Shown here piece after piece: positions 16,835 to 62,031 of a DNA stretch of 64,000 nucleotides. Location of the stretch: positions 1,736,001 to 1,800,000 of the forward strand of contig CM030334.1 of assembly GCA_017654855.1 (NCBI GenBank), in the 5' to 3' direction. Within the stretch, counting starts at the first letter, position 1, and every line of letters begins with the position of its first letter. Below the pieces are notes generated by a model. The model saw only the letters and a program-made list of their open reading frames with translations, was not told the DNA's origin and did no database searches. A program made the position numbers and the translations under genes. Source of the stretch: Podospora anserina. Lineage: Eukaryota.

Positions 16835-19429
16835 CTATACACCATACTCAATCTGTCCCATCGGCCTATCCTCCTCCATGCCCGGAGCCATAAAGTTCGT
16901 CCTGGGATCACCCGTCTCCTTGGCCGCCGAGCAGCGCGCCATCGTCGGGGAGCTATTTTTAATGTCAGCTTCATCAACCACACCAAAAAAAGAAGAAAAA
17001 AATAAGAAAAGAAAAACATACCTTCTAGAAATCACATCCGTAAAATAAAAGTTCTCCACCACCTTCCTCAACGGCTCCCCACTAACCTTCGCCCCCTTGT
17101 TCTGCTCCACAAGCTGCACCTTGCTCAGCTCCCTCAGCGCAACCGGCTCGACAACATCGTACGCCGCCAGCGCAGGAGAAATCTCCACCATCCTGTCCCT
17201 CAGCTGAGCCACGTCATCATACGGCAGCGGCGCCCCAAGGAACTCGCTCACCGCCCGGATGATCTTCCAGTCCGTCCTGCTGGCGCCCGGCAGGCCCGTC
17301 GCGGCCCTCGTCATCTGCGTGCGGCCCTCCGTGTTGACATAGGTGCCCGCCTTCTCCGTGTACGCCGCACCGGGCAGGACAACGTCCGCAATCTCGGCGC
17401 CCTTGTCACCATGATGGCCCTGGTAAACAATGAACGCGTCCTTGGGGACGTCGGCCGCGTCAAACTCGTCAGCACCCAAAAGCCAGACAAACTTGGGCTT
17501 GGTGTTGGCCACCTCCTCGTTGGGGACGACGAAGCCGACCTCAAAGGCGCCCGCGCGGGAAGCCTGGCGCTGGAGGACGTTGTAGCCGCTCCACTCCTCG
17601 GTCTGGAAGTTGCCGGCGTTCTTGTCGACGAAGCTGCCGACGACCTCGTAAAAGGCCTTGGCGTCGGGGTGCTCCGTGACACCAGAGCCAACAACAATCA
17701 TGGGCCGCTTGGCGGAAGCGAGCTTCTTGCCAAACTCGCCACTGAGAGCAGTCTTGAGGGCCTCAAGGTCCCGGCCGAGGTGGTCAAACTCAAAGGTAGA
17801 CTTCCACGTCTCGCCAACAACACCAATCTCAAGATCAGAGCGGAGCCATTGCTTCCTGATGCGGGCGTTCAAGACCGCAGCCTCATGTCTGGGGTTGGTG
17901 CCAACGAGAAGAACGCAGTCGGCAGACTCGATGCCCCAGATCTTGGAGTTGAAGAGGTAGTTGGACCGGACATCAACACCGTGAGCAATAGGCTGGCTGC
18001 CGCCGGGAATGTCGAGAGCGAGGTTATCCGAACCAAGCTTGTTGGCAAGATCCTTCATGGCGACCAAAGACTCAACCTCGGTCAGAGCGCCAGCAATAAC
18101 CTTGAACTCGTTCTCCTTGGGAGCCAGCGTCTGGTAAGCATGTGAAATCTCGGTAAGAGCCTGCTCCCAAGTAGCCGGCTCAAACTTGCCCTCCCTGCGC
18201 ACCAGAGGAATCGTCAACCTCTGCGTCTTGAGACCGTCGCAAGCAAAGCGAGTCTTGTCGTTGATCCACTCCTCGTTCACATCGTCATTCAAACGAGGCA
18301 AGATGCGCATGACCTCCAAACCCCTCGAGTCAACCCTGATGTTGGATCCCAACCCATCCAACACATCAATCGACTCGGTCTTCTTCAGCTCCCAAGGACG
18401 CGCCCGGAATGCGTACGGCTTCGAAGTCAGCGCACCGACAGGGCACAAATCAATAACGTTACCCGACATCTCCGAGTCCAAGTTCTGCTCGAGGTAAGTG
18501 CCAATCTGAATATCGTTGCCACGACCAGTCGAGCCCATCTCGGGGGCACCAGCAATGTCGTTGGAGAAGCGGATGCACCTCGTGCAGTGAATACACCTGT
18601 TCATGCTCGTCTTGATCAGAGGACCAATGTTCTTGTCCTCGACCGCGCGCTTGCCGCCAATCTCGTGAAACCGGCCACGATCAGCGCCGTAGCGCATCGA
18701 CTGATCCTGGAGATCGCACTCGCCTCCCTGGTCGCAGACGGGGCAGTCGAGGGGGTGGTTTGCGAGCAAGAACTCCATGACACCCTCGCGGGCCTTGTGT
18801 GTGAGGGGCGAGTTGGTCTTGACGACCATGCCGGGCTGGACGGGCCACGCGCACGAGGCGACGGGCTTGGGGGCGTTCTGGACTTCGACGAGGCACATGC
18901 GGCAGTTACCGGCGATCATGAGTTTCCTAGAGACACATATCTTATCAATATCGGTGTTGTTGTTGTTTGTTGTTGTTGACACCATTGGTGACATACTCAT
19001 GGTAGCAGTATCTGGTTTGAGGAATTCCATGTTAGCATCTCTCCCTTCCACTAGTCCGTGGACTTGAACATACCTGGGAACGGTCACACCCGCCTTCTCG
19101 CAAGCTTGAATGAGCGCGGAACCAGCTATTATTCACCCCCCCCAAGACCAAATCAGCAAAACCATCCCCCTTTGCCTATGAAACCTTTATCGCGAGGGAA
19201 AAGAAAGAGAGCTCGGCCTTTTCTTACCCTCAATCGAAACCTTCTTCCCATCTATTCACATCTCCAGCGTCAGCACTTGTCCCTTTGCATCCCAAAGACT
19301 GCGATCCTCACCAATGGTAAGCTCAACCTCAGCCGGCCTCACCGTCGTCGTAGAAAACGTCCTGTTGGCGACCAAGCTGGCTCTGGCCCGCGTCCGCCAA
19401 GCCGAGCGAGCCAATGTCTGCCTCAACAT
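16835..19429 (-). CDS. nuo78: NADH:ubiquinone oxidoreductase 75/78-kDa Fe-S subunit (introns 19311-19252, 19227-19126, 19073-19012, 18996-18927, 17021-16953)
   Basis: Mitochondrial presequence MLRQTLARSAW. Spliced [21 protein letters not shown], plus HPLDCPVCDQGGECDLQ, RCIHCTRC and DLCPVGAL Fe-S motifs. Confidence 0.96.
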
Positions 19430-20523
19430 TGTTGCGTATTTGCCCGTTCGATCTCGCCGGTAGTTGGGTATCGCTGTCTGTCGTCGAAGTTCGATCGGGG
19501 GGGGAGGGGGGGTGTTTCGTTTCTCGTTGCCGTCGGCGGGGGGGAGGGCGGCCAACTTGTTCCGTGATAACGAGGGGGGTCAAGAGCCGCAAGCTTACCT
19601 CGAGAGCTTCGTCGTTAGCAAGTGGCTCGTGCATTCAATCAACGAGGCAAGCCAAACTGCGGGTCCCCCACCCAACCTACCCAACCAATCACAACCACCC
19701 AATTCTAATCCCGCCCACCCATAAATGTCTTCCCCCACCAATTTCCTTTTTTTTTTCGCTTTTTCCTTTTCTTTTTTCTCTCCATATTGTACCAACGGTC
19801 ACTTATTGTAGGAGGGTACTGGTTAACTTCTTCCACGGAACTTCCTCCTCTATCATGTGCACCAAGAGAGAAAAAATATTATACTGGCTCCGTTTATGGA
19901 TGCAGGTGAGAGATTTCGTGTCTCGTTGAGCCATGGTTCTTACCGGCGGTTGCTACATTTTTGCCTGTGACTATTGTCCATTTTGATTTGTGTGCGAGTG
20001 AATGATTTTGGGCGGATTGAATGATCTCAAGATATCTTTTCGTGGTATTCTGATTTCGATGAGAGGGGGGACCCGTTTGTCTGAGGCCAGATGACCCGAG
20101 AGTGGCATTTCGTAGCTGTGGAGGGACCGTAATAGCTTCCCATAGACATCGACTTTTCAGTTCTCCCCATCCCGGGGGACTGATTGAATCGCGCGTGATG
20201 GTTCGGGAATGCTTCCTGGCATGGTGAATGGCACGGTGAACTGCATTTTGCAGAACACCAATCCATGATTTTACTCGGCGTGGCCTTAAAAAGACAACAT
20301 GAAACGTCCTCTGCTGCTGGTTAGTAAGACTTCCAGGTCAATATCATCACACGCTCAATTCTTTACAAGAATTACCAAAATTCTCTATAATCTCAAACAC
20401 AAGACTCGCCTGTCCAATATACAGTATTCATCCCACAAATCCCATCTCCCCTTATCCCAACATCGTTATATCTACACAAACCCTACAAATACCCCCACCC
20501 CTTTAACTCAACTACACAAACTC

Positions 20524-21864
20524 TCATCTACCTCCACACAACCTCCCCCCCCCCTCCCTCCCAAACCCTCGTTTCCCTTCCACCTCCCTCTTTCTCTCCT
20601 CCTCCTCCTCCCTCTCCCTCTCCCTCTCCTCCCTCACCTCCCTCCACTGCCGCTCCTGCGCCGCCCTCCTCGCCCTCGGACTCAAAGTCTCATACCCCTT
20701 CTTCTTCTCCCCTTCCCTCTCCTCCCCAACAACATTACTCGCATTAGCAAAGATCGTCGCCAAACAGTTCGAGTTCGGAGGCATCCCCTTTTTCTTGACA
20801 ACCCTCTTCTTGACAACCCTCTTCTTGCTTGAACTGCCAGTGCCTGGTGGTGGTGTTTCTGCCTCAGCACCACTAGCTGTCTCTATACTCGGTCTGCTCT
20901 TCTTCACCGGCGGCTGCTTTCCAACCGCTTCATCATCACCACTGTGCTGCGGAGATAAATCATCAGCCAACCGCTTCTGGGGGGGGTCGTTGCTGATGGA
21001 GAGGGATCCGAGTTTGTCCAGTCCCGTCGAAGAGCTAGAGATGGGCAGGTTGGGTCGGGTGGTTACCATCGTCGGTGTAGACAAGCTGGAAGGGCTAGGG
21101 ACAGCTGGAGTGGGAGAGATGGCGACAGGCTTGAGACTGGACGACTTTATCGATCTCTTCTTTTTGGTCGAGGATTCGGTAGGCAACATGTAGGTTTGTT
21201 TTCGGGGAAGACTGCTGTTGCCAGATTGGGGAGTGATGTTGGTGTGGTTCTGGATGGTTCTCTGAGGAGCTGGCATTGTTGAGTGGGGTGAGGCTGTCGC
21301 CGTTTCAAACGGTGATGAAGTCGTCTTTGCCGGCAAGGGGGATTGTTGTGTAGAAGATGTACCCTTTTTAGACGGCATGGAGGCCACTTTTGTCATCAAT
21401 GGACCTGGTGTTGTCAAGGGCAGGGTCTTCTTCGACCGAACCGAGGTTTGCTTTTGCGTCAACGAAGCCTGTGCCGCCGACGGTGAGGCTTTCTTTGACA
21501 GATGCGAGATTTGTTCCGGCATCAATGAAGCCTGTGCTGCCGAGGGTGTAGCTGTGCTTGACGAAAGCGAGGTTTCATCCTCTGTCAACGAAGTGATCTT
21601 TGACAATGGTGATGGTGACGGTACATGTTTTGATCGCAGCAACACCTGTCTCGGTGTGATCAAGCCCTGCTGTTTCGTGGCCGACGACTCCTGCTTCGCC
21701 AGTTCCGAAAATGTCTTTGCCAAGTCCAAATCTTTCTCCTCCCCCGAAGCCAAAGGTGTCCCAGACACATCCAATGAGTGATCTCCCGATCCACGGTGTC
21801 TCTTATCGCTCCCAACAGCATCCCCGGAAACCCGGACGCCGTCAACAGTTGAACCCGTCGCCTT
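20524..21864 (-). CDS. 446-codon Ser/Thr/Pro-rich ORF in frame with, and immediately after, the TAG of the 21865-22500 gene (candidate readthrough/edited extension)
   Basis: GCT TAG AAG GCG ACG... has no stop until TGA at 20524. First ATG only at 21522. Internal in-frame repeats (PSAAQASL x2, KKRVV x2). Confidence 0.6.
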   Translation of the reverse strand, partial: KATGSTVDGVRVSGDAVGSDKRHRGSGDHSLDVSGTPLASGEEKDLDLAKTFSELAKQESSATKQQGLITPRQVLLRSKHVPSPSPLSKITSLTEDETSLSSSTATPSAAQASLMPEQISHLSKKASPSAAQASLTQKQTSVRSKKTLPLTTPGPLMTKVASMPSKKGTSSTQQSPLPAKTTSSPFETATASPHSTMPAPQRTIQNHTNITPQSGNSSLPRKQTYMLPTESSTKKKRSIKSSSLKPVAISPTPAVPSPSSLSTPTMVTTRPNLPISSSSTGLDKLGSLSISNDPPQKRLADDLSPQHSGDDEAVGKQPPVKKSRPSIETASGAEAETPPPGTGSSSKKRVVKKRVVKKKGMPPNSNCLATIFANASNVVGEEREGEKKKGYETLSPRARRAAQERQWREVREEREREREEEEERKREVEGKRGFGREGGGRLCGGR

Positions 21865-22500
21865 CTAAGCACCCATCCTCTCCTCCGGCCTGACCTCAAA
21901 CTCCCTCATCTTCTCCACCTCCTTCTCCACATACACCGCATACTTGTCCCTGATGCCATTCATCGCATTCTCAAAGCTGTCCAGCTCGCTGATCGAACTC
22001 TCAATCAAAAACATCAAGTCCCTCACCGTCTTCTCCCTCACCGGCAACGGCTTGTCCGCCGGCTCCGGCCTGATAGCCTGCTTCAACGGCAGCACAGCTT
22101 CCGACTTGACATTGTAATCCTTATTCGGATCAGCCGGGGCGCTCACACTCGCCAAGAAGGAATCCTCCTCCTGCGGCGTGAGAGCAGGGCGGTAGTCCTG
22201 ACCGAGCTGATTCTCGGCCTCTTCAGCCTCGTTGATAAGCCGCTGTTTCTCGCGATCAAACATGTAGTACAGATTCTCTCTCGACCCCTGGCGGTGAAAC
22301 TCGATACTTTTGAGAATGTGCTCCAGACGCTGCATCCGGCCCTGCAGGGGTGTCGCTGTGGTGAGGTCGAAACTGACGGGGACGAACATGTGACCAGCTA
22401 CGTTCCTAAGCGGGGGGATCTTCTCCTTCTCCTCTTTGACAGGCGGCTTGAAGGAGCGGTCGAGGTCCATCAGATCTCCGAGGTCGAAGGAGCCCTCCAT
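21865..22500 (-). CDS. Hypothetical protein, 211 aa
   Basis: Intronless ORF with coding-like codon usage and a predicted helical/coiled-coil character. Family not recognised. Confidence 0.75.
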   Translation of the reverse strand: MEGSFDLGDLMDLDRSFKPPVKEEKEKIPPLRNVAGHMFVPVSFDLTTATPLQGRMQRLEHILKSIEFHRQGSRENLYYMFDREKQRLINEAEEAENQLGQDYRPALTPQEEDSFLASVSAPADPNKDYNVKSEAVLPLKQAIRPEPADKPLPVREKTVRDLMFLIESSISELDSFENAMNGIRDKYAVYVEKEVEKMREFEVRPEERMGA

Positions 22501-23587
22501 GATGGATGATGAGGTGGTTGCAGAGTCGAGTCAAGTCGAGTCGAATAATATTTTGACAGGCTTTCTTGAGAAGGGAATGCTACATATACCGGCTTTTCTG
22601 GTGACTCGGTTACTAAAAAGTACAAACAGCTTTAAATGCGGCGTATCATAATTACCTCGGCAATGGTTTGTTTCTGCGGTTGCTGTTGTTGGAAAACGGA
22701 GTGTGTGATCTTGTGAAGTCGAGAGAGAAGCTTTGATATTTGCCCCGCCACAAGACAACATCAACGACACGCCTAGTGACCCCGCCACTTCACCGCAACT
22801 CGGCGGAAGGAGCGATGTGAAATATGCAGAGGAGGGTTCAGTGGCTGACTGGGCTGTGGAAGGCTTTTTTTCTTTCTTTCTTTCTTTTTTTTTTTTTGTA
22901 ATTTTTTTTAATTTTTTTTTAATTTTTTTTTGCAACAATTGTAAGTGCTCATATTCAAGGTTAGAGATTGACGTCTTGGCCGCATCTCGCCCTCAATGCT
23001 CGAGGTTGACTAGGTTGGTTTTGTATCTTCCGTCTTTGTGTCTACAACTAATCGTCTTGTGATATTCGTACAAACACCCGTTGATAACAAATTCGTTTGT
23101 ACCGTGCTAGGAGGCCAGGCTTATCAAGATCGGATGAGGCAGGCGAATATATGTCATATCCTGTGTTCTACGTTGACATTTGAACTACTATAAAATCAAG
23201 ACCATGGATATCCCAACAGGTCTTCCCGAAATGAGCTCAGTCATGGTTTTGTCGTGATCCCAGAAAGCTGGCAGTTGACCTTTCATTTCATGTAGACACC
23301 CTCAACCAATTGTCTACGTTAAACTTACAAATGTACTCTTACAGTATCACTTCAACGTTCATGTGTTTACACATACCTTGAGCACTTGAACAAACACATA
23401 CAAGTCAATGAAGCCCTCACGACACATCAAATCACATCAACATCATCCAACACGGAACTCACCCTGAACCGCACAACTGAGATCAAGCACCACTGTCAGC
23501 AAAATAACAAATACGTGATATTAACAAAGTCCATCAGAACAAGGAAAGGGTAAAGCACCTTTATGTCCGTTGGCCACCCTTCAGAAT

Positions 23588-25616
23588 CTATGCCAACCTC
23601 ACACCCGCCTCCCTCCTCCTCTTCCCCTGATCCCTCGCCGCACTCCCCAACCCCACAATCTGCCCCGCATCCAAAATGCTCTGCTCCATCCTCCTCTTCT
23701 CCTCCGCCAGCTTCTTCAGCTTCTTATCCGTCTTCCCCTTCCCAGACCCCTTCCCATGGAACTGATGACTCAACTCCTTAAACGCCTCCTTCTGACCCAG
23801 ACTCCTCCCGTCCTCATCAATATACCTCAGCTGCACGTCCGGCTTGTACCCCTCCCGATACAAGGCATCAATAACCCTGCTCTGGTGCATCTCTCTGATG
23901 CTGTTCTGCTGCTGCTGCCACATCTCTTTCTCTTTTGTCGACATCCTCTTGAACCGCTCGCTCTCACGGTCCTTCTCACGCTGGAGGCGGGTTTCTTCAT
24001 CGAAAAGAGCCATGCGCCGGTTGAGCTCGGCGAGAAATCTCTGGCGCTGACGGAACTTTTCGGCTGCTTCGGCGCCCTGGCCTTCTTCGAGGAGGTGACG
24101 GTCGCGGAGGAGGGATAGGGTGGCGCCCATGCCTTGGGCGACCGTCTTTTCTTCTTCCACGCCGAGAGGGAGGTCGGCCAAGGGGGTGGTGGCGCGGCGG
24201 GTGGAGGAGGGCTCGTATTCATTGCGCGGATCATGGGCGTCGGCCATATCTTCATCCGAGGACTCGTCCTCCATCGCTGTCACCGCAGCGGGGCCGTTTT
24301 CTAGCTTGGGTTTGGGCGCCTTTCTGCGCTGTTCCTCTTGGTCCCTGTTTGCGCGGAGCGTGTCAACGAACTCGCTGATCTCGTCAATGACAACGGCCTT
24401 TTCTGTATAGGGGAGAGCGTCATCGGGGTCGTTGGTTGTTTCCCTCAGCTGACGGGCAATGTCCTCTGGCCGAGTCTTTTTTCGTTTCTTGAGGGCATCT
24501 CGTCTTTGTTGAGCGAGGGAGGTTTGGAGGTCCTCGTCGTCAGCAAAGTCGTCAGTGATAACTTTGCGCTTCTTCGTGAACGTGATGGCGCCGCCGTCAA
24601 TATCCATGTCGTTATCGAGGTTGGTTGTGTCCCCTGGGAATAGCACGTCGTCGTCATCCTTCTTCTGCCGTGATGACTTGGACTTTTTCTTGGGCTTCTT
24701 GACTTTGATCTCCGAGGCGTCGAGGTAGTCTGACACTGGGGGAGGAGCGTCCTCTGTTGAGATTCTGTTAGTTGTGGCGATCAGAAAGCTGTGGATGAAG
24801 AAGGTGGTGCCTACCAAGAGTGTCGAGATCCCCCACTTGTTGCCTTCTCTTCTGAACTGGCGCTTGAGCAAGAATGTCGGCCAAATCTGATGACGTCCCC
24901 ACTGCATCCAGCGTGAAAGCCTTCTTCTTCTTTCCGTGAATCTCCTCATCGTAATGCGACAGGATCCCAATCTGACCCGTCTCGTCAATGTCGTTTGGGT
25001 CGTATACTGGCTTCTTCTTTTTCAGATCTAGCCTCTCCTGCAGCTTCTCCCGTTCCCTCAGCTCGGAGTTCTCCAGCTCATCCCCTTCCTCCTCTTCCAG
25101 CACACCCGTATCCTTCAATGTGAGGACCTGATCATCTCCATCCAGGAAGCTGGCCATGTCGTGCGCAACCTTGACACCGGCCAAGTCAGCAGCTGTATGC
25201 TCAGCCGCCTTCCTTTCCGCTGCCTCCTTCTCTGCCCGGGCCTTCTCTTCCGCCTCGATTTTCTTTTGTCGCTTCTTTTGGCTCTTCAGCCAGGACTTGG
25301 TGTCGAGCTCGTCATCGTCGTCTGCGAGACCCTTGCCTTGCAGAACCGCATTGCGCTGAGCCAGCTCACGCGCCTTCTTGATCGCAGCAAGCTTCTCGGC
25401 GCGTTTCCGTTTCGCTTCTTCGGCTTCTTGCGCCTTTCTGTAGTTTTCGAATCCTTCTGCTTCGCGAATCTCGAGGGTGCTCGCCTTCTCGCCAGTCTCG
25501 GGGTCTGGGGATGGTTCTTTCGCTGCTTCCTGTGGCGCTGCTCCAGGCACAGGCAAGGGCTTCATGCCCATGGCCCGGCGGACCTTGTTGATCTCTTCTA
25601 TCGACGCAGCGTCCAT
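23588..25616 (-). CDS. SNU66: U4/U6.U5 tri-snRNP protein Snu66/SART-1 (intron 24814-24754)
   Basis: N-terminal HIND motif SIEEINKVRRAMGMKPL, DLAGVKVAH, and C-terminal KEAFKELSHQFHGKGSGKGK. Confidence 0.93.
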
Positions 25617-27469
25617 TTTTGTTGTTAATGGCGCAAATGATGATGGAGTTGATAAAATTGAGGACCAACCTTGATTGGCAAGGCAAGGCGACGAGCCAAG
25701 CTGGACATGATGAGGCTGACATGCTCCAAAGTGGAGCCGGATTGATAAGATAAGGCAGACAAACAGCAAGGCTGGCAAATTTGCATGCGTGCACGGGCCA
25801 CACTCCACCAAAAATTTGCCAGTATTTAGGTGAAGCCAAGCTGAGATTTTCCGACTTCTCTTTTTCCTTTTTCTCTCTTCAACGGTCCTGTGCCCAGTGT
25901 TCCTCTGCTGCCCTCGGGTGGTCAGAGTCGCAGCGCTGGCGCAGCTCGGTATTACCAAGGATGCCATCTTCTCTCCATGATGTCAGCTCTACCGACAGGA
26001 ACCAAGATTGACCGAAGTCTGTGGCAGCTCTGTTCGCGCCGTTTCGGCGGCGCTTGAGCGGGGTGTAAACTGATTTTACGAGATGCTATATTCCAAGCCG
26101 TTCGCAGAGACCGTCGGTCTGTGATGCTGGGGGAAACCATAGCGACCTACATTTTGATATCATGTGATTCTTTGCTTTGAATTCTTGTCCGTTATCTCCG
26201 GCGGGTTTCCATGATTGGCAACACGTTCGGAGGCTGCTCCGAAGCCATTCACAAGTTTCCAAGAAAACGGACCGATCACGATGGCTTCATGTTTGCTCTG
26301 AATCCCGAAGTGTCGTTCGGCCTTTCTCGGCGTGACAAGAGCTGAGCCTGAAGTTGTTCCTTGGCGGCGATCTGTGGCTGAGGCATGTGACGATGATTTT
26401 TTTTTTTTAAAGTGAGGCTTCGGTGCGAGCTTCCTTTCTCGTGGGGAAGCCGGGGACCCCACAATCTGGCGTCCGGCTGCCGATGCGGGGAACGGCACTG
26501 CGACCTCACCATCCTCCAGATTCCTCTCTGGGGAGGAGGGCGTGAAACCGCCGGACGGACCGATTCGAATCTGCGATTGCGGGGCCGACGCTACCGCAAC
26601 CGTTGGGCTAGCCATGACCTGCATATCGTCTATTTTTCGAGAAGTCTCCATCAGATGCTCTCTATCAGAGAGGGTGATTGCGTATCATGTAGGCTACCAC
26701 CCAGATCAAGCACATACTACACGCCTACACCGGTACAGACATACGCACACCTGCATATCTACAACAGCAAGATAGACGACAGACTTTGGATGACAGCAGG
26801 GGAGAAAAAGCACAGTGCCTGAGTTTAGTGTTCCTCCTCCTGTCTCGGGTGGCCCGATTTGGCATCCTCCCCATACCCCATACGATTCTGTACCCCAGTC
26901 CATGCTCCCCACACTGCATGTAAGTGAGATTCTTCAATCTCCATGCTTTGAAGGGCGTTCTCCGTGGTTCATGCAACCGCCCTGCTCACCACCACAAGCC
27001 GCGGCAGTCTGCCAGACCCAGTAAAACTGATCAAGACGACCAATCCCCTTTGTCCACCGCCATGGCTGCCCAAGCTGGTGACGTCTTCAGGCCCCTGGTC
27101 TCTCCGGCTAGACATCGGTGCTTTTCCAAGAAGTGTGGTCAAGTGCCTGGTATCTCGGTTAACCCTCATTCAGAGCAGATAGCCGGCCGACCTGGGGAAT
27201 AGAACACGCATGATAGCATACACAGTAGCCCAACCGCCTCTAGACGCTCCGTTGCAACGCTGTCAACTTACCTTCCCGCAACCCGGGCCCTACCCCTGCT
27301 TCCCGGCCCTGCCTCTCTGCTCTGGCCATCGTAGCACCGAGCACGAGAAACACCGAGAAGCCATCTCGCTCACACCTTGAGGTCGGCCCTTCCCTCGCCA
27401 GCTCCACCGTGCCAACGGCTTGGACGCCCGTGGACGCCCTTGACGTTGAGGCGGTCCTTGGCTTGACCC

Positions 27470-44327: not shown

Positions 44328-45167
44328 AGGGCTGAGTTGGGTTCGAGTCTGAAATTGACGAGTTGGAGGAGAAAGGCAAGCGGGCGAGCGTGAATCTGTT
44401 GTTTTGCCATGATCGTTAGCAATTATTATCTTTGACGAGTTGAAATCAGCATTACATGAGGTACCTAAAACTGCCATTCTACACATGTCATCATGACAAC
44501 AGAGCAACATACATAAGAATAAGAGCTCATTAAGGATTGACTATGGGTGTGTATCTATTTGTTACATGGACAAGGCCAAGTTAATCCATTGCAGGCCATG
44601 CATCTGCTGAGCATCAACAACAACACGTCCATCCAGGACTAAAAAGAAAAGGCAGTCTCCCGTCATTATCCTCCACAACCTCCCCCTTCTTTTTTGTTCT
44701 TGTACCCCCACATTTGTCAAACCTTGCTCCCCAAGAAAATGATTTCTCACAGTTATATTTGAATGAAAACGATTGCCAGGCGCGGCCCACCCCGAGGGTT
44801 TGGCAGGTCGCTGTCCCCATTAGATCGGACAGAACAGATTCCCCCGTCCCCTTTAAAGAAGGTTGCAAAGCCGCAAACCGTTGATGTCGCAAAACACTAA
44901 TCATGAAGTGTCCAAAGCACTCGAACGGGCAGTAGCCTCCCGAGCGTAGGATGTCGGGTGATCTCTAAGATTAGCTGCTGGCGAATATGTTGGGTGAAGA
45001 ACCGAGACGAATATGGTGTGGGTCAACTCGTCGAAAGAACGATTGCGAAAATCATGGTCGTAATACAGACAAGAAAAAAGAAAAAAAAAGAAACGAATGG
45101 GCTCGGACGATGAATGTGTCTGAGAGAAGAGGAAAAAGAAATGCTTCTTCAGATCGCGGATCAAATC

Positions 45168-47826
45168 TTAGCGGTACGCGGCAACACCACCGCCACCACC
45201 ACCGCCACCACCACCACCACCACCTCCATAGGGGCGGCTAGGACGAATGGCCGCCATGGAGGAGGGACCAACACCAGGACCAGGCCGGGTTGCGACGGCG
45301 TGGTTGGTGCAGAGCATGCCGACACGGGAACCAAACTTGGAGCCACGGAGAGACACCATGTGCTTGCGAATATGAGCGGCGACAATCTCGCGATGCTGGG
45401 GGTTGGCGTGCGTCAAGATGTACTGGATGAGATAGTTACCGTACTGATCGCTGGCGATGTCGATAAGGGGAATGCGGGGACGTTCGTGCCGGCCCTCGCA
45501 GACACGGTCAAGATAGCGGCCCAGAAACTCGGGGCCACCAATCTTCAGACACTTCTCGACCACCTTGGACGCAAACTGGTCCATGCTGTACTCGGCGGCA
45601 TATCGAATGACATGGTCGATGGCTCGGCTGCGGTCAGCCGGGGCGCCATGCTCGCAGATGTGCTGGATGCACCAGTTGCCAAACTGGCCATGAGCGACAA
45701 TGTCGATATTGGCAAGCACCTCCTCAATGCAAGGACGCTGTAGACATCCATGTTAGCGATCGCCAGCACCGCAGAGCAACGTGACAGCACAAACCTTGTC
45801 CTCCTCCAAACAATTCTCAAAGATGTTCTGCACAACCAAACTACCCGTCTCGCCCAAGGCAACCTCGTGCCACATGCCGCGCAGCGACTCGTTGACATAC
45901 TTCATGATCTGGGGAGGAGACTCGGTCCAACGCAGCTCGAACAGCTTCTGCCAGACGTGGCAAGCATAACGGTGAATGACCGTCTCGGGAATCCGGCGCA
46001 GCAGCTCGTGAACCATGATGGCCTTGTACTCCTCGGGCACCGAGTCGAAGGCCTTCTGAACCACATGGCAGCCAAAGGGGTCCATCGAGAGATTCAGAGT
46101 GTTTCCGCGAATCGCCTCGGCAATCTTGACCACCTGTTCCGGGGTGCCATGCTCAAAGCAGCGCTGCACCAAGAAGTTGCCGAACCGGTTGACCATCAAG
46201 GGGTAGGCCTGGGCAACAATCGCCTCCACAATGTCGTACTTTTGGTCAGGGGTGCCGACCTTGAGCTTTTGCTGCAGAAAGATGGAGGCTTGCTGGTCAT
46301 TGTTGCACACAATCTTGTCGACGATGTACTTCCAGTCGCAAGTGACGTTGCGGTCAAGAAGGCGGCGATAGTTGAGAGGCTCGGTCGTGGCAGAGACGTA
46401 GGTCTGGCCTTCGCTGGAAATGGACTGCAATTCAAGCGTCAGCATGATGCTTCAAGCAATAGCCCGTTTGAAGCTCACCTCAGTCTTTCCCCAGGGTCCC
46501 TGGGAAGAGGAGGTGAACTCGGTGGCATGGGGTGAGAGTGGAGACCCAACCTGTTGCTGCGGGTAGGGGGGATACATCCCCAAGCCCATGCCGCCGGCCA
46601 TGGGGGCCTGATTGCCGTAGGGATAGCTGAGAGCGGTGCTGTCATAGGGGCCAGCATTCATGTTGAAGCCGCCGCTGTAGTTGGACGAGGGAGCGTAGCG
46701 GCTGTCGTAGCGATTGGTGCGGCGTCCCATGGGCCTCATCATCTCCTGGTCAGGCGGAGCTCGATCCTGGCGATACACCTCCAGGCCTGTGTGGTTGTAT
46801 GAGGTTTCGTACCCTGCGGTGGGGGCGCGGGGATCGGTCCAGGGAGTCGCCTGGGGCGCACCTGTCACGGCGGTGGTCTGGGGGAACTGACTGGGATAAG
46901 AAGGCTGCTTGTTCCAGATACCGCGAGCGCGGCTCATGCCTCCTGTCGACATGGGCTCGGGAATCTCGGCGCGGGCATCGTCGGGAACAAGCCAGCCCGG
47001 CTCGCGAAGATAAGGCAGCTTGGCGGAGCTGCCGCAAGTCGGACCTCCCGAGAGAGCCCGAGCAATCGGGGAGACAGCGCCGGTAATCGACGAGGCAAAG
47101 TCGGATTCGACGACACCAAGAGCTGGAGTGACGCGCCCACTCTCAAGACCGTAGCGGTTCTGCGACTCGAGGCGTGAGATGTGGTTGTGAGCTTGAGCGA
47201 GCTCGAGCTTCAAACGCAAAACCTCCTCAGTGCTGGCCTGCGTCTCGTTCTGGGCGGCGCTGGCAGGTCGAGTGGTGGGGGCAGTCTGCGACGAAGGGAA
47301 GCCGTCCGTGGCGGGCGTGATGGGCAGAGAGCTGCAGGACGATTGGTGGTCCAGGGCTCTGGTGTGCACAGCATCCTCGTCCGAAGCCTTGCGCATGTCG
47401 CTCTGATGCTGCAAGATGGCAGACTGCTGCTCGGAAATCTTGGCGTAGAGTTTCTCCATGGGGTACGAGTCGGACGGAGGCGGCTCGTGTTTGATCTTCA
47501 CCTTCTGTTATGATCAGTCCAATCTTTGACAGGAGAGTTGAGTGGCAGCACCAACCTTGGGATAGCTCTGGTTGGCCAGCTTCGAGGTGCTGAGGGCGCT
47601 GACGTTCTTCTTGAGGGAGACGGGAAGGGAGCTGCCGTCCTGTTGCAGAGCGGGTCAGAAACTTATCCATTGCCTGTCTGTGCAGCGAGTGAATGCGGAG
47701 GGGCAATGCCTGAGATGAGTGGGCCGCAAACTCGTCAGAGTTTTTGGAGTTTTCATCGTGGGAGCAGCTCTTGGAAGCCTGGGTACGTCGCTCCGTGGGA
47801 GAGCCGCTCATGGCTGCGGTCGACAT
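45168..47826 (-). CDS. Pumilio/PUF RNA-binding protein (introns 47709-47640 [putative GC-AG], 47555-47505, 46478-46425, 45794-45738)
   Basis: Puf repeats NRFGNFLVQRCFE, DPFGCHVVQKAFD, GQFGNWCIQHI, DQFASKVVEKCL and DQYGNYLIQYIL. Gly-rich C-terminus. The 5' exon structure is tentative. Confidence 0.88.
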
Positions 47827-54794: not shown

Positions 54795-56066
54795 CTAAGA
54801 AGGCCTCGCCTTGTTGGTTCCGGCACGCTTCCCGGTCTTCGTGGTGGTCTTGGGAGCAGGGGCGCTGCCGCTGGTCGATGTTGAAGACGGAGGCTTCAGT
54901 GTCTTGCGCCGTTTGGCGTCGCTGGGCCGAAGAGGAGGGATCGTGGTGCTTTCTTCGCCAGCTTGGTTTGTAAATGTGCCGCCGACCTTTCGGTGTGGGG
55001 GAACTACTGTATTGAAGAGCCTGGGGACGGAACCCGCGGTGGGAGTTGCCGCTGGGGGTCTCGTGCCGGGGGTGTTGTGCTGCGAGATGGGCGTCCTGGG
55101 CTGTGATGTGGGAGTCGTCATTGCGGGCCTTGCCCCCGGGACTTTTGGCACCGGAATAGGCGTTGCTGATGTTTTTGGGGGCTTCGAGGTTGAAGATCTG
55201 GACGGCAATGCAGACGCTTTGCCCTGTGCTTTAGGCCGTGAATCCGCTGCTGTCTTGGTCAAAACTGGCAACGCCTTGATCATCGTTGAAGTTGAAGGCT
55301 TGCTAGCCGAGGAGACCGTCTCTTCCCCCCTGATTGCCATGCTAGCAATCTCAGACGTCCGCCGCTTCTTCGGTCTGTGGGACTCGGGCGCTGGAATGGT
55401 ACTCGGTGTATCGTCCTCCCCGCTTAGGACGATCGAATCCCCTGAAGCCGAATCTGGTATTCGAGGCCGCTTACTACGACCGGCAACCGAACCCACCGTC
55501 ATCGCCTTCGATTTAGCAGCAGGCTCCTCAGAAGGGACTGTCTTTTTCAATGCCCGAGACGCTGGCGGTGGTGAGGAGATGCGCATTCTAGAAAATGCCG
55601 CGCTGGAAGGTGTATTTTCAGCATTGTAATCTGGAAGCTGGACCTCGCCCATAGCAGCGGTCGGCTGTGGGGTTCCCGAGTTTTTCAGTATTGACTTCAA
55701 CGGGGTGCTGAGTCTGTTGATCAATCTCATCGGTATCGGCATACCCAACGGGGTTAAGGCAGGTGTCGTTGAAGCCTCAGCTGGTGCCGTTGAAGGCTCA
55801 GCTGGTGCCGTTGAAGGCTCAGCTGGTGTCGTTGAAGGCTCAGTGAGTGTCGTCAAAGTCACAGCTGGTGGCTCCTGCAACATCGGAGGGGGCACGCTGC
55901 TTTGATGGTAGGAAGAGCTGGCGGCAGTCTGCGAGACTGTAATGGGTGACTGTCCATACGTAGATGGCTGCGGTTGAGCACCCCCATCACCTTTGGCTGC
56001 ACTTCCCCCGACGCCTCCACCGGTCTCAGTCCACGCCGGCCAACGTGGGGTTGGCGGTCCCAAGTC
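54795..56066 (-). CDS. 423-codon Pro/Ser/Thr-rich ORF in frame with, and immediately after, the chromodomain gene TAG (candidate readthrough/edited extension)
   Basis: GCT TAG GAC TTG GGA... stays open to TAG at 54795. First ATG only at 55883. Contains a frame-preserving 21-bp tandem repeat. Confidence 0.6.
   Translation of the reverse strand, partial: DLGPPTPRWPAWTETGGGVGGSAAKGDGGAQPQPSTYGQSPITVSQTAASSSYHQSSVPPPMLQEPPAVTLTTLTEPSTTPAEPSTAPAEPSTAPAEASTTPALTPLGMPIPMRLINRLSTPLKSILKNSGTPQPTAAMGEVQLPDYNAENTPSSAAFSRMRISSPPPASRALKKTVPSEEPAAKSKAMTVGSVAGRSKRPRIPDSASGDSIVLSGEDDTPSTIPAPESHRPKKRRTSEIASMAIRGEETVSSASKPSTSTMIKALPVLTKTAADSRPKAQGKASALPSRSSTSKPPKTSATPIPVPKVPGARPAMTTPTSQPRTPISQHNTPGTRPPAATPTAGSVPRLFNTVVPPHRKVGGTFTNQAGEESTTIPPLRPSDAKRRKTLKPPSSTSTSGSAPAPKTTTKTGKRAGTNKARPS
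55762..55843 (-). repeat. 21-bp x4 coding minisatellite (EPSTxPA units)
   Basis: GGTGYCGTTGAAGSCTCAGCT repeated four times on the + strand. Confidence 0.9.
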
Positions 56067-59000
56067 CTAAGCGGAGCCGACTGTTGATCCCTTGTGTTGA
56101 CCAATGCTGAGTGCACCAAAGATGTTTCGCCATGAATCGACCGTTATGTGTGAAAAGCCACGCCCCTCCTCCTCCTGGTCCTTGTACCACTCCGTGGTAG
56201 GTCGAAACCGATACTTCATGTACTGTGAGCGTCGCCCATACCTGTTGCGCCAGAGGCGGGCTTCTTCAAAGAGCCTGTTGGTACACTTGGATGGGGCCCC
56301 GTCGTCCGACAAGGGCCGCCCTGTAGCGCGAGGTGGGTGGAAAATGATGCGGGCGTCTTCCTCATCCGATGTCTCAGAATCCCGGATACCCATCTCCACA
56401 TCGTCCTCGTCAGTAGCTGGATCCGTGGCGAGCTTCACCCTTTTGAATCCTTTATTGGGTCTCAACATGCTGGTACGCGGCGCGGGAATAAGTTTCTTAA
56501 ACTGGAACTCGGTGCCCAAGGCTTGGAGAAATAGAGCCACCACATCAATGTCGTGCGGAGATTGGCATTCTTCCGGGACCATGTAACCCCCAAGCCACAC
56601 ATCGGTCAACCTGGTGCCGGGATTCCTTTCCCCTGTATGCTCCCGTACATGCTTGATCAGTTGCCGCTGCATGAACGTAAGCTCGCCCTCAGTGGGCTGA
56701 CGGTCTCCAAACCTCCTTGGGGCCGCAGGATCCCAGATGATAAGCTCGGCGTCTGTCCACGGTCTCTTAAACGCATCACGTGGCCGATAAAAGACGAGCC
56801 AGGGGTGTCGTTTTGGCGTGCGGTCGTCAGGCTTGTTGTCGGGGTCCCACTCGTCGGGGATGGTATAGAAGAAACCGACATAGGTATTGAACCTCGTGGT
56901 CCCATGCCTTCCTCCCCATGGAAACCCCCATTTGAACCAGCTCGAGATGGTGTTCCAGTGCAGTGTGAAATCTTCGTAATGATCGCCCATGTCGCTATCG
57001 GACCACGAAACTGGAAACCCGAACAAGATCCAGAGGCTGGAATTCCATTCGCTTGGCCCCACATCTTTCAGCATCTCAGCAAGTGAGTGCTGTGATATGC
57101 GACTAAAGCACTCGCTGGAGACCTCGTGCATTGCGAAGGCCTGATACACAGAAGCAGGGGCTGCAGCAGAGGTGGCGGCTGGTGCTATACCTGCGCTCTC
57201 AGCAACAGCGTGGGCTTGTCCGGATTGCTCGGCCTGCGTGTTGCAAACACGGTAGTGCTCCAAGGTACCCTTCAACACGTAGTCTGAGTCATTGATGGTG
57301 CGGCTGGTGTACCTTGGAACGGCGATTTCTCGCTCGCCTCTTTCAGACCGACGCGCTGTTATGGAGTCGTCTGTACCAAGAACGTAGAAGTGGCGGAACT
57401 GATCCAATCGCAGTGTTGACCAGTACCCAAACCAGTTGACGAGGCTTTGCTCGTCATTGGGGTCGATCTTGTCAATAGCATAGACCAGCGTGGCGCTCTC
57501 CTCGTTGTCACCAACAGGCGGGAGTTTTCGACGTCTCAGGTCGTCCAGCTCATAGGCCTTTGTAGCGGCAGTAAACCGGCTCTCGCAATCTTCCTTGCTT
57601 AAACCTTTCAAGTTTTCGAGAATGGCAAGATTGGCCGTGCTCTCCATCGCTGCTGGAGAGGCTAGCAGCTTGGCTCGATCATGCTCCTTCTCCTCAGCCA
57701 AGTCCCTGAGGTAGGCTGCAAAGTCCCATGCGGTAACAAGACGACATGTTGTGGATTTGGCAAAGTACATCAGAAACCAGTCAATGATTTCGAGGGCTCG
57801 AGTTGGTTCCGCTACCAGAAAGCTTGGGGTCAATAATATGGCCGCCCCTAGGGGAAACAAGCGCGTGAGCTGGAGTTGGCCTGGAGGCACCACAGAACTT
57901 TCTTCCAACAGCGAAGTTGTTGATGGATACATCGGGAGCTTGCTCATCGGCTCTGTAAAGCACCAAAACTGATCATCTCGGCTAAGTAAGAGATGTCGCA
58001 GATTCGGGAGCCTGTGCAAAGTCCACGCCATCAGCTCATGTACGATGACCACACCCGCTGTCTCTTCTGAGCTGAGCTTGTTCTGGAAGGCATACCAGCT
58101 CCCAGGATGGTCGCTTGTGAAGATACAGCAGTTGGGCTCACATGCACGGAGCCAGTGAAATAGCAAGAGACGAACTTCGACCTTTGAGTCAGGAAATGCC
58201 AGGAAGAAGTTATGTGTCGATGCGGGCTTCAAGCTGGTTGGTAGCAGCCTCTGGTAGTCAAAACCGAAGAACTTTTCCATGATCAGTTGCCGATTTGAGG
58301 ACTCCTTGCCAGCGCCAGGCGGCTTGGGTGGCACATCCCGGGGTGGCGGCAGCAGGGCCAGGAGGGGCTCGTGTGGTGTAAATATGTAGTACAAGAGCTC
58401 AAATTCAGATGGATCTGACGCTGGAAGTCCCCTGAGCTGAACGGCATTCCATTCTTCACACTTTGACGGGTATATGAGAATGCTGAAGTCTGGCTGAGCA
58501 CAAAGCAGTCCCATAATGCTGGCTCGTAAAGAACTCGCCACATTTTGTAGCCTTTGTTGGTCGGTATTAGAACTTAAGCCGCCAAAGGCCAAGCCAGTTT
58601 TAACCATTGAGTGCAGTGCGGTAGCTACCGACGTAGCAAGGCAACTGTGGTCAAACTCCAAGCTCTCCGTGGCTAGAAACCTTGCATACAGCTCATCACG
58701 AGTCCCATCAGGTAACCCGTTGAAAGTTGTTTGAATACATTTGGACCCAGGCTGGGGCTTGCCAAACCTAACCCGCTTTTCTGAACAGGTATTGCGTTGG
58801 GGTATGATGGTAACTGTTGGCTCAGGAGCAGACAATGTAGGAGGTGGGGTAGGAGGCCGAGCAGCGAGAGATGCTGCAGGCCGTGGAGTGGCCTCAACTT
58901 GATCTTTTTGCACAAGAGTATTATCGTCCAAGTCCATGGGATCCGGCTCACGGAATTCGATGACGCTGTTCACGTCGTCATCCCATCTCACCGACTTCCG

Positions 59001-60473
59001 CTTTTTCAAAGGGGGCCTTGAGATTGGTGCCGTGTGTGCTTGTGGTGATGATGGCAGGCATGCTGAAGGCGGTGGCAGGCCCGCTGAGGCTGGCGCTGGG
59101 TCAATTGTTCTTGGTGAGATTCCTGCCGACGTCGCTGTGAGGCCTGCTGAGGTTGCCGGCACTAGGCCTGTCGAGATCGGTGCAAGGCCGGTCCGACTGG
59201 AGGAAATGGGTGCTGTTATGTCTTCTGGGTCCGACTCCAGCTCCATCGAATAGTCGCCAACAAAAAGGCTGTCGTCTTCCGGTAGATCCGTCGGTTGTGC
59301 AGTTTCCTTGGACATCTTTCTCGCTGCAGCAGGCCCCTCGGTCAGGGGGAAGAGGGCTACCTTTGAAGGGTCAGGGGCAATGTCTTCCCTCGCACGGCTA
59401 CGAAGTTCGGCCAATCTCCCAAGATGCATGTTGCTGAAGGGCTTGGGGTCCTTTGCGGGATTGGACATAACCTCCTCAATGACAGGCCGTGGTTTCCTTA
59501 CTTTACCGCCAGTAAAGATGTTCCCCGTCTTGCTTTGGACGGTCTTTTGGGTCGACTTGCGGGCCGTTGTCTTTTGGCCCGACGGCGCTCTTTTGCTAGA
59601 TGCGGCACCCTTGGAACCGAGGTTTGATTCCTTGGTCTTTGATTTTGACGGGCCGCTCATGTCGTCTTTACTTGCTTTTCTTGCAGTTCCCTCGTATCCA
59701 GTGGTCGACGGAGCTGTAGCCTGCCGTTTCTTTGTGGAAGATGATGCCAGTGGGTCGGAGGTCGCTGCAGGTTTGGCTAGTTTGCCTGGGAGGCTTGCTG
59801 GCCTATCCTTGTTTGGTTTTGACAAGGCCGAGGACTTCAGAGGCTTGGACTTTGTTGGCGATTTGGGAGCAGTGGTCTTAATAGGCCTTGCAACGCCCTT
59901 CTTATAAATCGAGGTCAAAGATGGTTTTCGTGCCTTGGGTGGCTTGGGCCGAGGGGCCGACACTTCCACAACATCGCCATCCTCACTCGCCTCATCACTA
60001 CTCGAATCATCTTCTGGAATAGCACTTGACTTGGACGATGATGCTGGCAAAGGCTCGGTCAAGGGAAGACCCAGCCGGGCGCGCTTCGCATTACGAAGAT
60101 TGTGCCTTTCTCTTTTCTCCCGCTCCTTTTGTTGTTGAACTGCAAAGTACCTGTCGACATCAAAAGGCTTCTCTTCGCCAGCTTCTTGCTTGGCCTTGGT
60201 CTCTGCCCACTGGGCAATCATATCATCACCAAAAATCTCTGCGGGCTCCCAAGTGCTGTCCCAGAACGGATCAAACCGGGTAGCATCCCACTGAACGAGA
60301 TAGTACATGATTCCGTTTTGGTTTGGGCGTTCAGCCAGAATCGATTCGACGACATACTCCTCGTCGTCGGGGGGAGGGATTGTGGATGTCAATGAGATCG
60401 CATCATCATCGCTCTCAGCCGGGCCGTCGTCCAGCCTCGATGGCCAACTCTCCACGAGGATATTCTTGAACAT
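56067..60473 (-). CDS. Large chromodomain-containing protein, about 1468 aa (Chp1-like architecture)
   Basis: N-terminal chromodomain EEYVVESILAE..YYLVQW..STWEPAE, a long disordered linker and a globular C-terminal half. The start codon is uncertain. Confidence 0.85.
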   Translation of the reverse strand: MFKNILVESWPSRLDDGPAESDDDAISLTSTIPPPDDEEYVVESILAERPNQNGIMYYLVQWDATRFDPFWDSTWEPAEIFGDDMIAQWAETKAKQEAGEEKPFDVDRYFAVQQQKEREKRERHNLRNAKRARLGLPLTEPLPASSSKSSAIPEDDSSSDEASEDGDVVEVSAPRPKPPKARKPSLTSIYKKGVARPIKTTAPKSPTKSKPLKSSALSKPNKDRPASLPGKLAKPAATSDPLASSSTKKRQATAPSTTGYEGTARKASKDDMSGPSKSKTKESNLGSKGAASSKRAPSGQKTTARKSTQKTVQSKTGNIFTGGKVRKPRPVIEEVMSNPAKDPKPFSNMHLGRLAELRSRAREDIAPDPSKVALFPLTEGPAAARKMSKETAQPTDLPEDDSLFVGDYSMELESDPEDITAPISSSRTGLAPISTGLVPATSAGLTATSAGISPRTIDPAPASAGLPPPSACLPSSPQAHTAPISRPPLKKRKSVRWDDDVNSVIEFREPDPMDLDDNTLVQKDQVEATPRPAASLAARPPTPPPTLSAPEPTVTIIPQRNTCSEKRVRFGKPQPGSKCIQTTFNGLPDGTRDELYARFLATESLEFDHSCLATSVATALHSMVKTGLAFGGLSSNTDQQRLQNVASSLRASIMGLLCAQPDFSILIYPSKCEEWNAVQLRGLPASDPSEFELLYYIFTPHEPLLALLPPPRDVPPKPPGAGKESSNRQLIMEKFFGFDYQRLLPTSLKPASTHNFFLAFPDSKVEVRLLLFHWLRACEPNCCIFTSDHPGSWYAFQNKLSSEETAGVVIVHELMAWTLHRLPNLRHLLLSRDDQFWCFTEPMSKLPMYPSTTSLLEESSVVPPGQLQLTRLFPLGAAILLTPSFLVAEPTRALEIIDWFLMYFAKSTTCRLVTAWDFAAYLRDLAEEKEHDRAKLLASPAAMESTANLAILENLKGLSKEDCESRFTAATKAYELDDLRRRKLPPVGDNEESATLVYAIDKIDPNDEQSLVNWFGYWSTLRLDQFRHFYVLGTDDSITARRSERGEREIAVPRYTSRTINDSDYVLKGTLEHYRVCNTQAEQSGQAHAVAESAGIAPAATSAAAPASVYQAFAMHEVSSECFSRISQHSLAEMLKDVGPSEWNSSLWILFGFPVSWSDSDMGDHYEDFTLHWNTISSWFKWGFPWGGRHGTTRFNTYVGFFYTIPDEWDPDNKPDDRTPKRHPWLVFYRPRDAFKRPWTDAELIIWDPAAPRRFGDRQPTEGELTFMQRQLIKHVREHTGERNPGTRLTDVWLGGYMVPEECQSPHDIDVVALFLQALGTEFQFKKLIPAPRTSMLRPNKGFKRVKLATDPATDEDDVEMGIRDSETSDEEDARIIFHPPRATGRPLSDDGAPSKCTNRLFEEARLWRNRYGRRSQYMKYRFRPTTEWYKDQEEEGRGFSHITVDSWRNIFGALSIGQHKGSTVGSA

Positions 60474-62031
60474 GGTGGGCAAGTGCTGTTGGACAGGCAG
60501 GGGCGGTTGGTGCTGGCATCAATGGTCGATGCCCGAAGGCTCTTGACCATGCACCACCCGGTGGAGCTAGTTCTGGCAATTTATTTGGGCCAGATATGTG
60601 CGTGGTGTGAGATGCTACACTCAAGTTAGCATTTGATGCAGACTGTAAGGTAGGTGATGGTGTTTGAAGTTCGGCTCAACTCACCAGGAGAATCGATTGA
60701 TCGGACGATAGGTCGGTTCGATGTGCTGTGATATGGGATGATTTATTTCCACGCACCGTGAAACAAAGGATGCCCCACGAAGGTTTCCTTTGATTCGTTT
60801 GCTGTTCACTGAAGCAGATGTGAGATGAAGTTGAGAAGCGACTTCAGGAGTGTGAACCAATGAGGCCTGAGGTCCCACTAAATAATTGCTAGGGGTTGGT
60901 TGCTGGGTGAAGCTGCCCCACCATCACAAGTATCACCAAACAGGCAAGAACGGCCCTTCAGTATCAACCCCGCTCTTCAATTGGATCAGGATTTGGGTAT
61001 TGCCCTCAGGAGAGGCAGGAAAGGGCCATCCAAGGCAGCGGGAATTGGCAGTTTGAGGTGTTGCCTCAGCAATGGCCCGGTCATCGACACCAAGAACAGC
61101 TTCGCTCTGTCTTGCAGGGTTCTTTTGTTGAATATCATTGTAGGAGAGACCACAATAGCTCATGCCGCAGCAGTAAAGCCTCTTGGACAGCTGAATAATG
61201 TTTTTGATGGAGAAATAGCCAACGCGGATCCAATATCAAGAGACTAGAGCCTTGAGCTCTCACAGCATAGGTTGATGTGTTTGGGTCTCTGAAAAGTGGA
61301 CACTGGCCTCAATTTTTGAGTTGGCTAGTGGCCGCCTCGCACCACAAAAACACCGAAAAAGCTTAATTATAACACTTGCAAGTTCTCGCTCCTTGTGATG
61401 CTGTCAGCCTTGATATTTGTCTTTGCACATCAACCATGTCGTCGGTATCTGGACGTGGGGAGAGCCGATGCTACCCTTGTAAGTTCAAGCTTCAGCACGT
61501 GACATCCCCTTTGCAGTGCATGGTTCAAGTTTGAAGACCCCGGCTTGTCCGAGTCCCGAGAGTGACAAGTGCACTGGACTCCGCTACGGATTTGACAGAG
61601 AGATGCTGTGTCTCTGAACAAAGTATTGAGAGCCGGACCTTTATTCAGGTTGTCCCGGCACTTTTCCGACAGACCCCCGGACAAACCAAAAGAACCTGGA
61701 AGGGCCAAAGATAGACGACAGCAAAGCCCGCTATCAGCCATCCTAAAACAGGCGCCGAACACCGCCACTTGTTCGTCAGCTGGGGCGCTCGACCAACTGC
61801 TGGACCGAGACCCACTGGCCTGAGCCGCACCGCCCTGCCCTCATTGACTCCTGGACGCTGCTTGCCTGGGCGTTTGAACCTGGTATTTGGCATCTGGCTG
61901 GCTTTGGCATTCCGTCTTTGTGCACTTGCATCAACGAATCCAGCTTCGACCCATCGACCGAGACAACCTCCCCGGCACATTTCAGATTTCAAGAAACCAC
62001 AAGCACCCTCACCTCTCACCTCATCGCAGCC

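Follow-up and report, generated by a model that had tools for sequence, protein, structure and literature searches.

The question raised by this locus is whether two neighbouring open frames on the minus strand, separated by a single TAG, are parts of one gene, and, if so, how and when the second part could be translated. In the window, that is, the whole stretch of 64,000 nucleotides that was analysed, an earlier note had taken the two frames to be one, and this is confirmed by the sequence: a single frame begins at ATG 22500, runs through 211 codons, the TAG and 446 sense codons, and closes at a TGA (20526–20524), giving a translation of 658 aa when a Trp is placed at the TAG. A protein cluster look-up identifies the gene as Podospora anserina PODANS_3_4890 (Pa_3_4890); in its own 35.96 Mb genome Pa_3_4890 is the sole match to the long form, and no paralogue was found. 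The stretch of 30 sense codons that the note had placed between the two tracked frames is open as described, although it ends at a TTG (21774). The parts of the transcription unit are as follows.

22501..22707, minus strand: 5′ UTR, to the limit of the contigs; the contig of run X4 runs 52 letters past the joint at 22656
22598..22655, minus strand: 5′ UTR intron of 58 nt (GTAATT...CCAG), with the joint in runs X4 and X13 (two of four) and a branch-like GTAAC 16 nt from its end
21865..22500, minus strand: ORF1, 211 aa plus TAG, ending RPEERMGA; member of an unnamed Sordariomycete family, predicted antiparallel coiled-coil hairpin
21865..21930, minus strand: 66-nt "intron" of the public model, identical with the final 21 codons of ORF1 and the TAG that follows them
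21865..21867, minus strand: the TAG, with A21866 as the putative target of editing (UAG to UIG, decoded as Trp)
20524..21864, minus strand: in-frame tail, 446 codons to the TGA, rich in Ser, Thr, Pro and Lys and predicted to be disordered except for two C-terminal helices
19720..20523, minus strand: 3′ UTR of about 805 nt according to the published transcript model, with contigs over parts of 19792–20379

The public 636-aa model of Pa_3_4890 fuses both ORFs by dropping the 66 nt from GTGGAG through the TAG. Eight long public models exist, six in the species complex and one each in Cercophora samala and Apiosordaria backusii, and all of them resume at KATGS after the stop, the C. samala model with a predicted donor five codons later than that of the P. 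anserina model. The annotation of Triangularia verruculosa is a 207-aa protein with the C-terminus RPEERMGA, three Logan proteins (25 contigs) stop at this same residue, RPEERMGA, and a read-through sequence from Met11 is absent from the protein collection.

The nature of the stop can be judged from the relatives of ORF1. A profile search with ORF1 returned 123 representatives at E ≤ 0.001, and in the 121 relatives used for family statistics (the 123 minus two already in hand) the median length is 214 aa; 109 have 300 aa or fewer, 10 have 324–414 aa, and the two above 420 aa are both weak, repeat-like matches. A terminal motif like RPEER is present in 24 of the 121, all of which end 0–18 residues past it. 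The named members belong to Sordariales, Coniochaeta, Colletotrichum and Discula, and the ORF1 product covers the whole family alignment. Because the relatives end at the position of the TAG across Sordariomycetes, the TAG is taken as the normal end of the family and the short form as the whole ancestral protein, and the idea of an old gene interrupted by a premature stop is not supported. Among these relatives, none was found with a sense codon joining ORF1 and tail. A metagenome scan reduced 176 candidates to one distant locus; the metagenomic syntenic relative L002 ends RPEERVLGR-TGA, and its next gene follows 668 nt on, leaving no room for a comparable tail. In L002 (1158–2333), a further 168 codons of the ORF1 frame are free of stops ahead of the likely start codon.

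ORF1 alone is predicted by AlphaFold to fold as an antiparallel coiled-coil hairpin with a mean pLDDT of 90.1. In Pfam nothing significant was found for ORF1, the tail or the long form, and of 52 family members one had a match, marginal and unrelated; the ESM Atlas gave no usable match for ORF1 or one relative, Foldseek gave no match to the ORF1 fold at E ≤ 0.001, and the best VIA match (Z 8.5) in the fold search was among generic coiled coils. The label "ING N-terminal domain", which UniRef attaches to one sibling model, was not reproduced by Pfam. Judged from the family alignment and the predicted fold, the 211 aa of ORF1 make up an entire coiled-coil protein. Two tests that define a PSC (premature stop correction) gene thus turn out in the opposite sense, in that the outgroup members end at this position rather than being full length with a sense codon, and the unedited product is not a fragment, the 211-aa protein being predicted to fold confidently alone. 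The locus is therefore not of the PSC type; it is of the stop-loss type, a complete short protein followed by a lineage-restricted tail.

A stop-free run of 446 codons arose in one of 9,000 Markov simulations (orders 1–3, 3,000 each), in which the mean was 10–13 stops, so that the tail is not a product of chance; the other five frames of the same region hold 3–18 stops. Codon periodicity is seen in the tail (G at the third position, 0.42). Under a codon model built from 13 other long frames of the window, which included a TAG tail at 54798–56066 and hence has a slight bias in favour of the tail, its score exceeds 2,000 of 2,000 base shuffles and ranks first among the six frames, at 0.058 versus 0.313 for ORF1. 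For the 114 codons before the tail ATG, the score is reached by 337 of 2,000 shuffles. AlphaFold assigns a pLDDT below 50 to residues 209–576 and helices to residues 579–588 and 608–644, from a shallow alignment of five rows, and this prediction fits with disorder of most of the tail.

The frame at 54798–56066 belongs to a second split frame in the window (54798–60518, minus strand), with 1483 codons, a TAG (A 56068) and 423 codons, in the same GCT TAG context. At 45114–47507, adjacent long open frames lie on both strands with single stops (TGA, TAA, TAG) between them, and these are probably introns or shadow frames.

The following elements of the tail bear on its conservation.

21760..21864, minus strand: first 35 codons after the stop, identical at 31 of 35 positions in C. 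samala and 19 of 34 in A. backusii
21520..21522, minus strand: first tail ATG, at codon 115 past the TAG, present in five of five sibling species and absent in C. samala
21148..21192, minus strand: motif YMxxTxSSxxKxRSI (residues 437–451), common to three lineages
20788..20826, minus strand: basic cluster KKRVVKKRVVKKK, poorly kept outside the species complex
20641..20763, minus strand: C-terminal block LAxIFAxASN...YExLSPRxRRxxQxRxWR (residues 580–620), leading into a charged helix

The distance of 114 codons from the TAG to the first ATG and the presence of PPVKKSRP and KKRVVKKRVVKKK in the tail are as the earlier note had given them; in three of five sibling species the latter has one KKRVV unit fewer. 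Outside P. anserina and its siblings, the tail was found in C. samala and A. backusii and nowhere else. In C. samala the homologous tail has 375 aa (E 1.9e-30) and is identical at 217 of 354 aligned residues; in A. backusii it has 319 aa and is identical at 138 of 297. The corresponding identities of ORF1 are 150/190 and 136/187. The 35 residues straight after the stop, upstream of every ATG, are the best-kept part of the tail. The first Met in the C. samala tail is at position 194 of 375, and the tails offer no candidate Met for a common start, the sole shared Met being inside the conserved YM motif. In an ORF1 tree of 29 rows, P. anserina and siblings, C. samala, A. backusii and T. verruculosa form one branch (99/99, with rough bootstraps). 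The tails of the relatives are gene models, not DNA, so that stops could be concealed by additional predicted introns, and the TAG of these relatives was deduced from the AG acceptor before KATGS. Comparison of these sequences suggests that the tail is lineage-restricted, protein-like and under constraint at the protein level.

Among the alternative explanations, the one that survives best, even if it appears unlikely to us, holds that the tail is not usefully translated, the region being a lengthy 3′ UTR whose open frame is decaying or under weak selection, and any editing being noise. It would account for the residue differences within the species complex, which amount to 4–6% in the tail versus 0.5–2% in ORF1, for the weak synonymous codon bias of the tail, and for the result in T. 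verruculosa, where no tail was found by a weak search that also missed the tail of A. backusii; moreover, stop-loss editing has been argued to be generally non-adaptive, and genome-wide mostly so (PMC13684035). Against these points, the frame stays open for 319–449 codons in all eight public models, the indels are in-frame, and the motifs at the far end are common to three lineages, including the block LAxIFAxASN...YExLSPRxRR some 370–410 codons past the stop. The real 3′ UTR, unlike the tail, has a negative, clearly non-coding codon score in all six frames.

The RNA evidence consists of contigs, over 17000–27000, of four of the 14 runs guessed to be of RNA (X1, X13, X14 and X4, from three studies); all four are spliced at introns of neighbouring genes and hence represent RNA. 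The stop and the annotated 66-nt segment are bridged in four of four runs, without a gap or a changed letter, by contigs spanning 21692–22424, 20728–22206, 20728–22137 and 20728–22597, and the contig depth in the four runs is 5–21 over the stop versus 0–1.9 in the intergenic bin 22678–23011. The stretch 20380–20727, a contig gap on a skipped repeat, was left out of the evidence. Since the X4 contig holds the spliced 5′ UTR intron, it is derived from the minus-strand mRNA. The published model, in the accessible part of its source (PMC9801653, Table S1 row 8676), is one 2.8-kb transcript across both frames with an 805-nt 3′ UTR and an end near 19720; although its source is a series on sexual development, the same run also yielded the housekeeping neighbour Pa_3_4870, and the model is therefore uninformative on stage. 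Thus, one mRNA spans ORF1 and tail and is unspliced at the stop, and the TAG, intact and unspliced in all four runs, is due neither to a sequencing error nor to a constitutive intron.

Other features of the same contigs concern the neighbouring genes. A 15-nt micro-exon lies within the skipped stretch 18927–19073 in four of four runs, together with a 24-nt exon at about 19228–19251, in a gene that we take to be NADH dehydrogenase 78-kDa-like. In three of four runs, an intron with an unusual GTGCTT donor (23477–23558) is spliced just past the stop of a neighbouring gene, presumably SART-1-like.

A fused protein might still result if the 66-nt (or 54-nt) GT...TAG segment were spliced out in a minor form or at a particular stage, with the TAG kept as an acceptor, and we regard this as quite improbable. 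The segment is used by all eight long public models, rare forms are dropped by contigs, the four runs may come from another stage, and in FgBUD14, as described in the available part of PMC11156358, editing is combined with splicing of a stop-holding intron. The earlier note had seen no in-frame donor with a branch site; in-frame GT donors do exist, at 21930 and 21918, and are paired with the TAG as acceptor in the public annotation, but the absence of a branch site stands. An argument from the donor is weak, because one real neighbouring intron also has a non-consensus donor, and it is the branch argument that carries weight: no NTRAY branch motif is found in the 66-nt segment, 77% of which are purines, and a branch motif is present at most 31 nt from the 3′ end in five of five RNA-supported neighbouring introns examined. 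In addition, no joint occurs in any of the four runs, the segment encodes the conserved RPEER end of the family, and the predicted donor varies between species.

Given a conserved coding tail that has no start of its own and is carried on an unspliced mRNA, the stop must be bypassed. UAG is the only stop codon that a single A-to-I edit removes, and the long form is probably made in this way, by stop-loss editing in perithecia through a presumed edit at A21866. The context of A21866 is GCT TAG AAG, with U at −1 and purines at +1 and +3; the fit to the fungal editing preference, pointed out in the earlier note, is real but hardly informative, since every UAG brings the U at −1 and the G at +1 with it. 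A21866 is predicted to be unpaired in six window sizes (P 0.69–1.00; the mean for all As is 0.65–0.77) and falls within a hairpin loop when ±30 nt are folded; this loop is confined to short windows, the fold varies with window size, and the stability of the hairpin is no better than that of shuffles (z 0.44, 0.82 and −0.36). No T>C was found at 21866 in the contigs of the four runs, which drop minor alleles, nor elsewhere in the minus-strand genes over 10 kb in the same contigs; hence these runs provide no positive control, and the stage sampled may simply be a non-editing one. Of the two products proposed previously, a 211-aa short form and a 658-aa recoded form, the frames, the single transcript and the coding-like tail are thus upheld, with editing seen in the contigs of zero of four runs. 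At 20131, within the 3′ UTR of Pa_3_4890, a plus-strand A>G occurs at full contig depth in four of four RNA runs; it reads as T>C on the mRNA strand and is therefore probably a difference between strain and reference, not editing.

Precedents for such a route are given in the portions of the following reports that were accessible. In Sordariomycetes, sexual-stage A-to-I editing is performed by Tad2-Tad3-Ame1 (PMC11087585), with a preference for U at −1, purines at +1 and +3, and hairpin loops (PMC11156358). Stop-loss editing occurs in 403 genes of Fusarium graminearum, that of DBF2 being found also in Chaetomium, Sordaria and Neurospora, which like P. anserina belong to Sordariales (PMC13123824), and 15 stop-loss cases in Sordaria macrospora have peptide support (PMC6794485, PMC7306014). 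In P. anserina, ADAT genes rise in perithecia (bioRxiv 2024.12.09.627484). In the literature covered, which included few subscription papers, no report was found on the stop of Pa_3_4890 or measuring editing in P. anserina, and Pa_3_4890 has no match in seven supplements of PMC6709928.

If ribosomes read through the unedited UAG with a near-cognate tRNA, at a low level and in all stages, this would also account for a conserved tail on an unedited mRNA and would need no untested enzyme. Leaky stop contexts include UGA-CUA and UAG-CAR-YYA; UAG-AAG-GCG is not known to be one, nor does a stable downstream structure stand out, and we consider this route very unlikely. Still less probable is a separate gene of 332 aa that starts from ATG 21522 on its own internal transcript: the ATG is present in five of five sibling species, and an internal start is compatible with the contigs, but C. 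samala has no Met at the corresponding position, the part of the tail conserved best is upstream of the ATG (31/35, vs 150/190 for ORF1, in C. samala), a single transcript model has been published, and no stand-alone tail was found among proteins of 182–581 aa by the weak search that also missed A. backusii. Finally, a sequencing error or a strain-specific nonsense mutation, which the earlier note had named beforehand as fatal to its reading, is refuted by the TAG in four of four runs from three studies, the retention of the stop in relatives, the like ends of the three Logan proteins and T. verruculosa, and the end of the family at this position.

In the predicted mechanism of stop-loss editing, the unspliced mRNA of about 2.8 kb would by default yield the complete 211-aa coiled-coil protein, as shown at the RNA level. 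Immediately past the ancestral stop, a long frame appears to have been held free of stops in the lineage that comprises P. anserina, C. samala and A. backusii. The Tad2-Tad3-Ame1 deaminase most likely acts on A21866 while perithecia develop, converting UAG to UIG (Trp), and the edited mRNA would be translated into the 658-aa isoform, in which a disordered, basic tail ends in a conserved block of helices near the C-terminus. The basic clusters, which we take to resemble a nuclear localization pattern, suggest nuclear targeting, and the tail probably shifts the location or the binding of the protein, e.g., by nuclear import via these clusters. We speculate, by analogy with FgDbf2, that the tail may also destabilise the protein. 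It is possible, though rather doubtful at present, that in one Sordariales lineage the 3′ sequence past an ancestral stop gave rise to a region of 300–450 residues with conserved motifs of its own, which has only been reachable via sexual-stage editing.

If this were true, stop-loss editing would be a birthplace of new protein domains confined to one stage, as opposed to short degrons, and, with the second tail of 423 codons in the same window, hidden isoforms may be frequent in Podospora, masked by false introns that end at TAG. The public model of Pa_3_4890 is corrected to a default product of 211 aa instead of 636 aa, and the models of its orthologues probably likewise. Pa_3_4890 is a sharp test case for whether fungal stop-loss editing is adaptive (PMC13123824 vs PMC13684035), since noise is a hard explanation for a tail of 446 codons with conserved motifs and the lineage-restricted origin can be dated. 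Its stop would also be an easy initial marker when A-to-I editing is looked for in P. anserina.

The place of Pa_3_4890 among edited fungal genes is worth considering, within the accessible parts of the reports cited. It resembles the stop-loss genes of F. graminearum in having a UAG at a conserved C-terminus, an editable context and a disordered extension restricted to close relatives. However, the characterised stop-loss tails of FgDBF2, FgMOB1 and FgCDC14 have 11–27 aa and act as degrons (PMC13123824), whereas the tail of Pa_3_4890, known from sequence, has 446 aa, twice its core, and contains conserved motifs; moreover, its TAG is not class-wide, the syntenic relative L002 ending in TGA with no tail. 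White collar 1 of S. macrospora, with a peptide-verified stop-loss extension of 131 aa that has been proposed to add function (PMC6794485), is a second case in Sordariales of a long extension behind a normal stop; it is a known regulator and proven by peptides, whereas the core of Pa_3_4890 has no assigned function and its predicted tail is 3.4 times longer. A single in-frame TAG that splits a long frame is also seen in the PSC "pseudogenes" of F. graminearum (PUK1, AMD1 and FgAMA1), a group enriched for disordered hypothetical proteins and commonly mis-annotated (PMC10776026). In a CDC20/AMA1 family search of the P. anserina genome (G000), WD40-repeat matches with one in-frame TAG were observed at C6:3359000–3359488, C4:3691935–3692417 and C8:2981664–2982038, which may represent introns, disrupted genes or genes that depend on editing. 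PSC stops mostly derive from sense codons in older full-length genes, of which the truncated form appears functionless (PMC10776026); in clear contrast, the short form of Pa_3_4890 would be ancestral and whole, and the tail the newcomer. Because ten PSC genes had their stop fixed at origin (PMC10776026), the boundary between PSC and stop-loss genes is not sharp. Altogether, the mechanism is one already known, and it is the tail that is unusually long in comparison with the characterised extensions.
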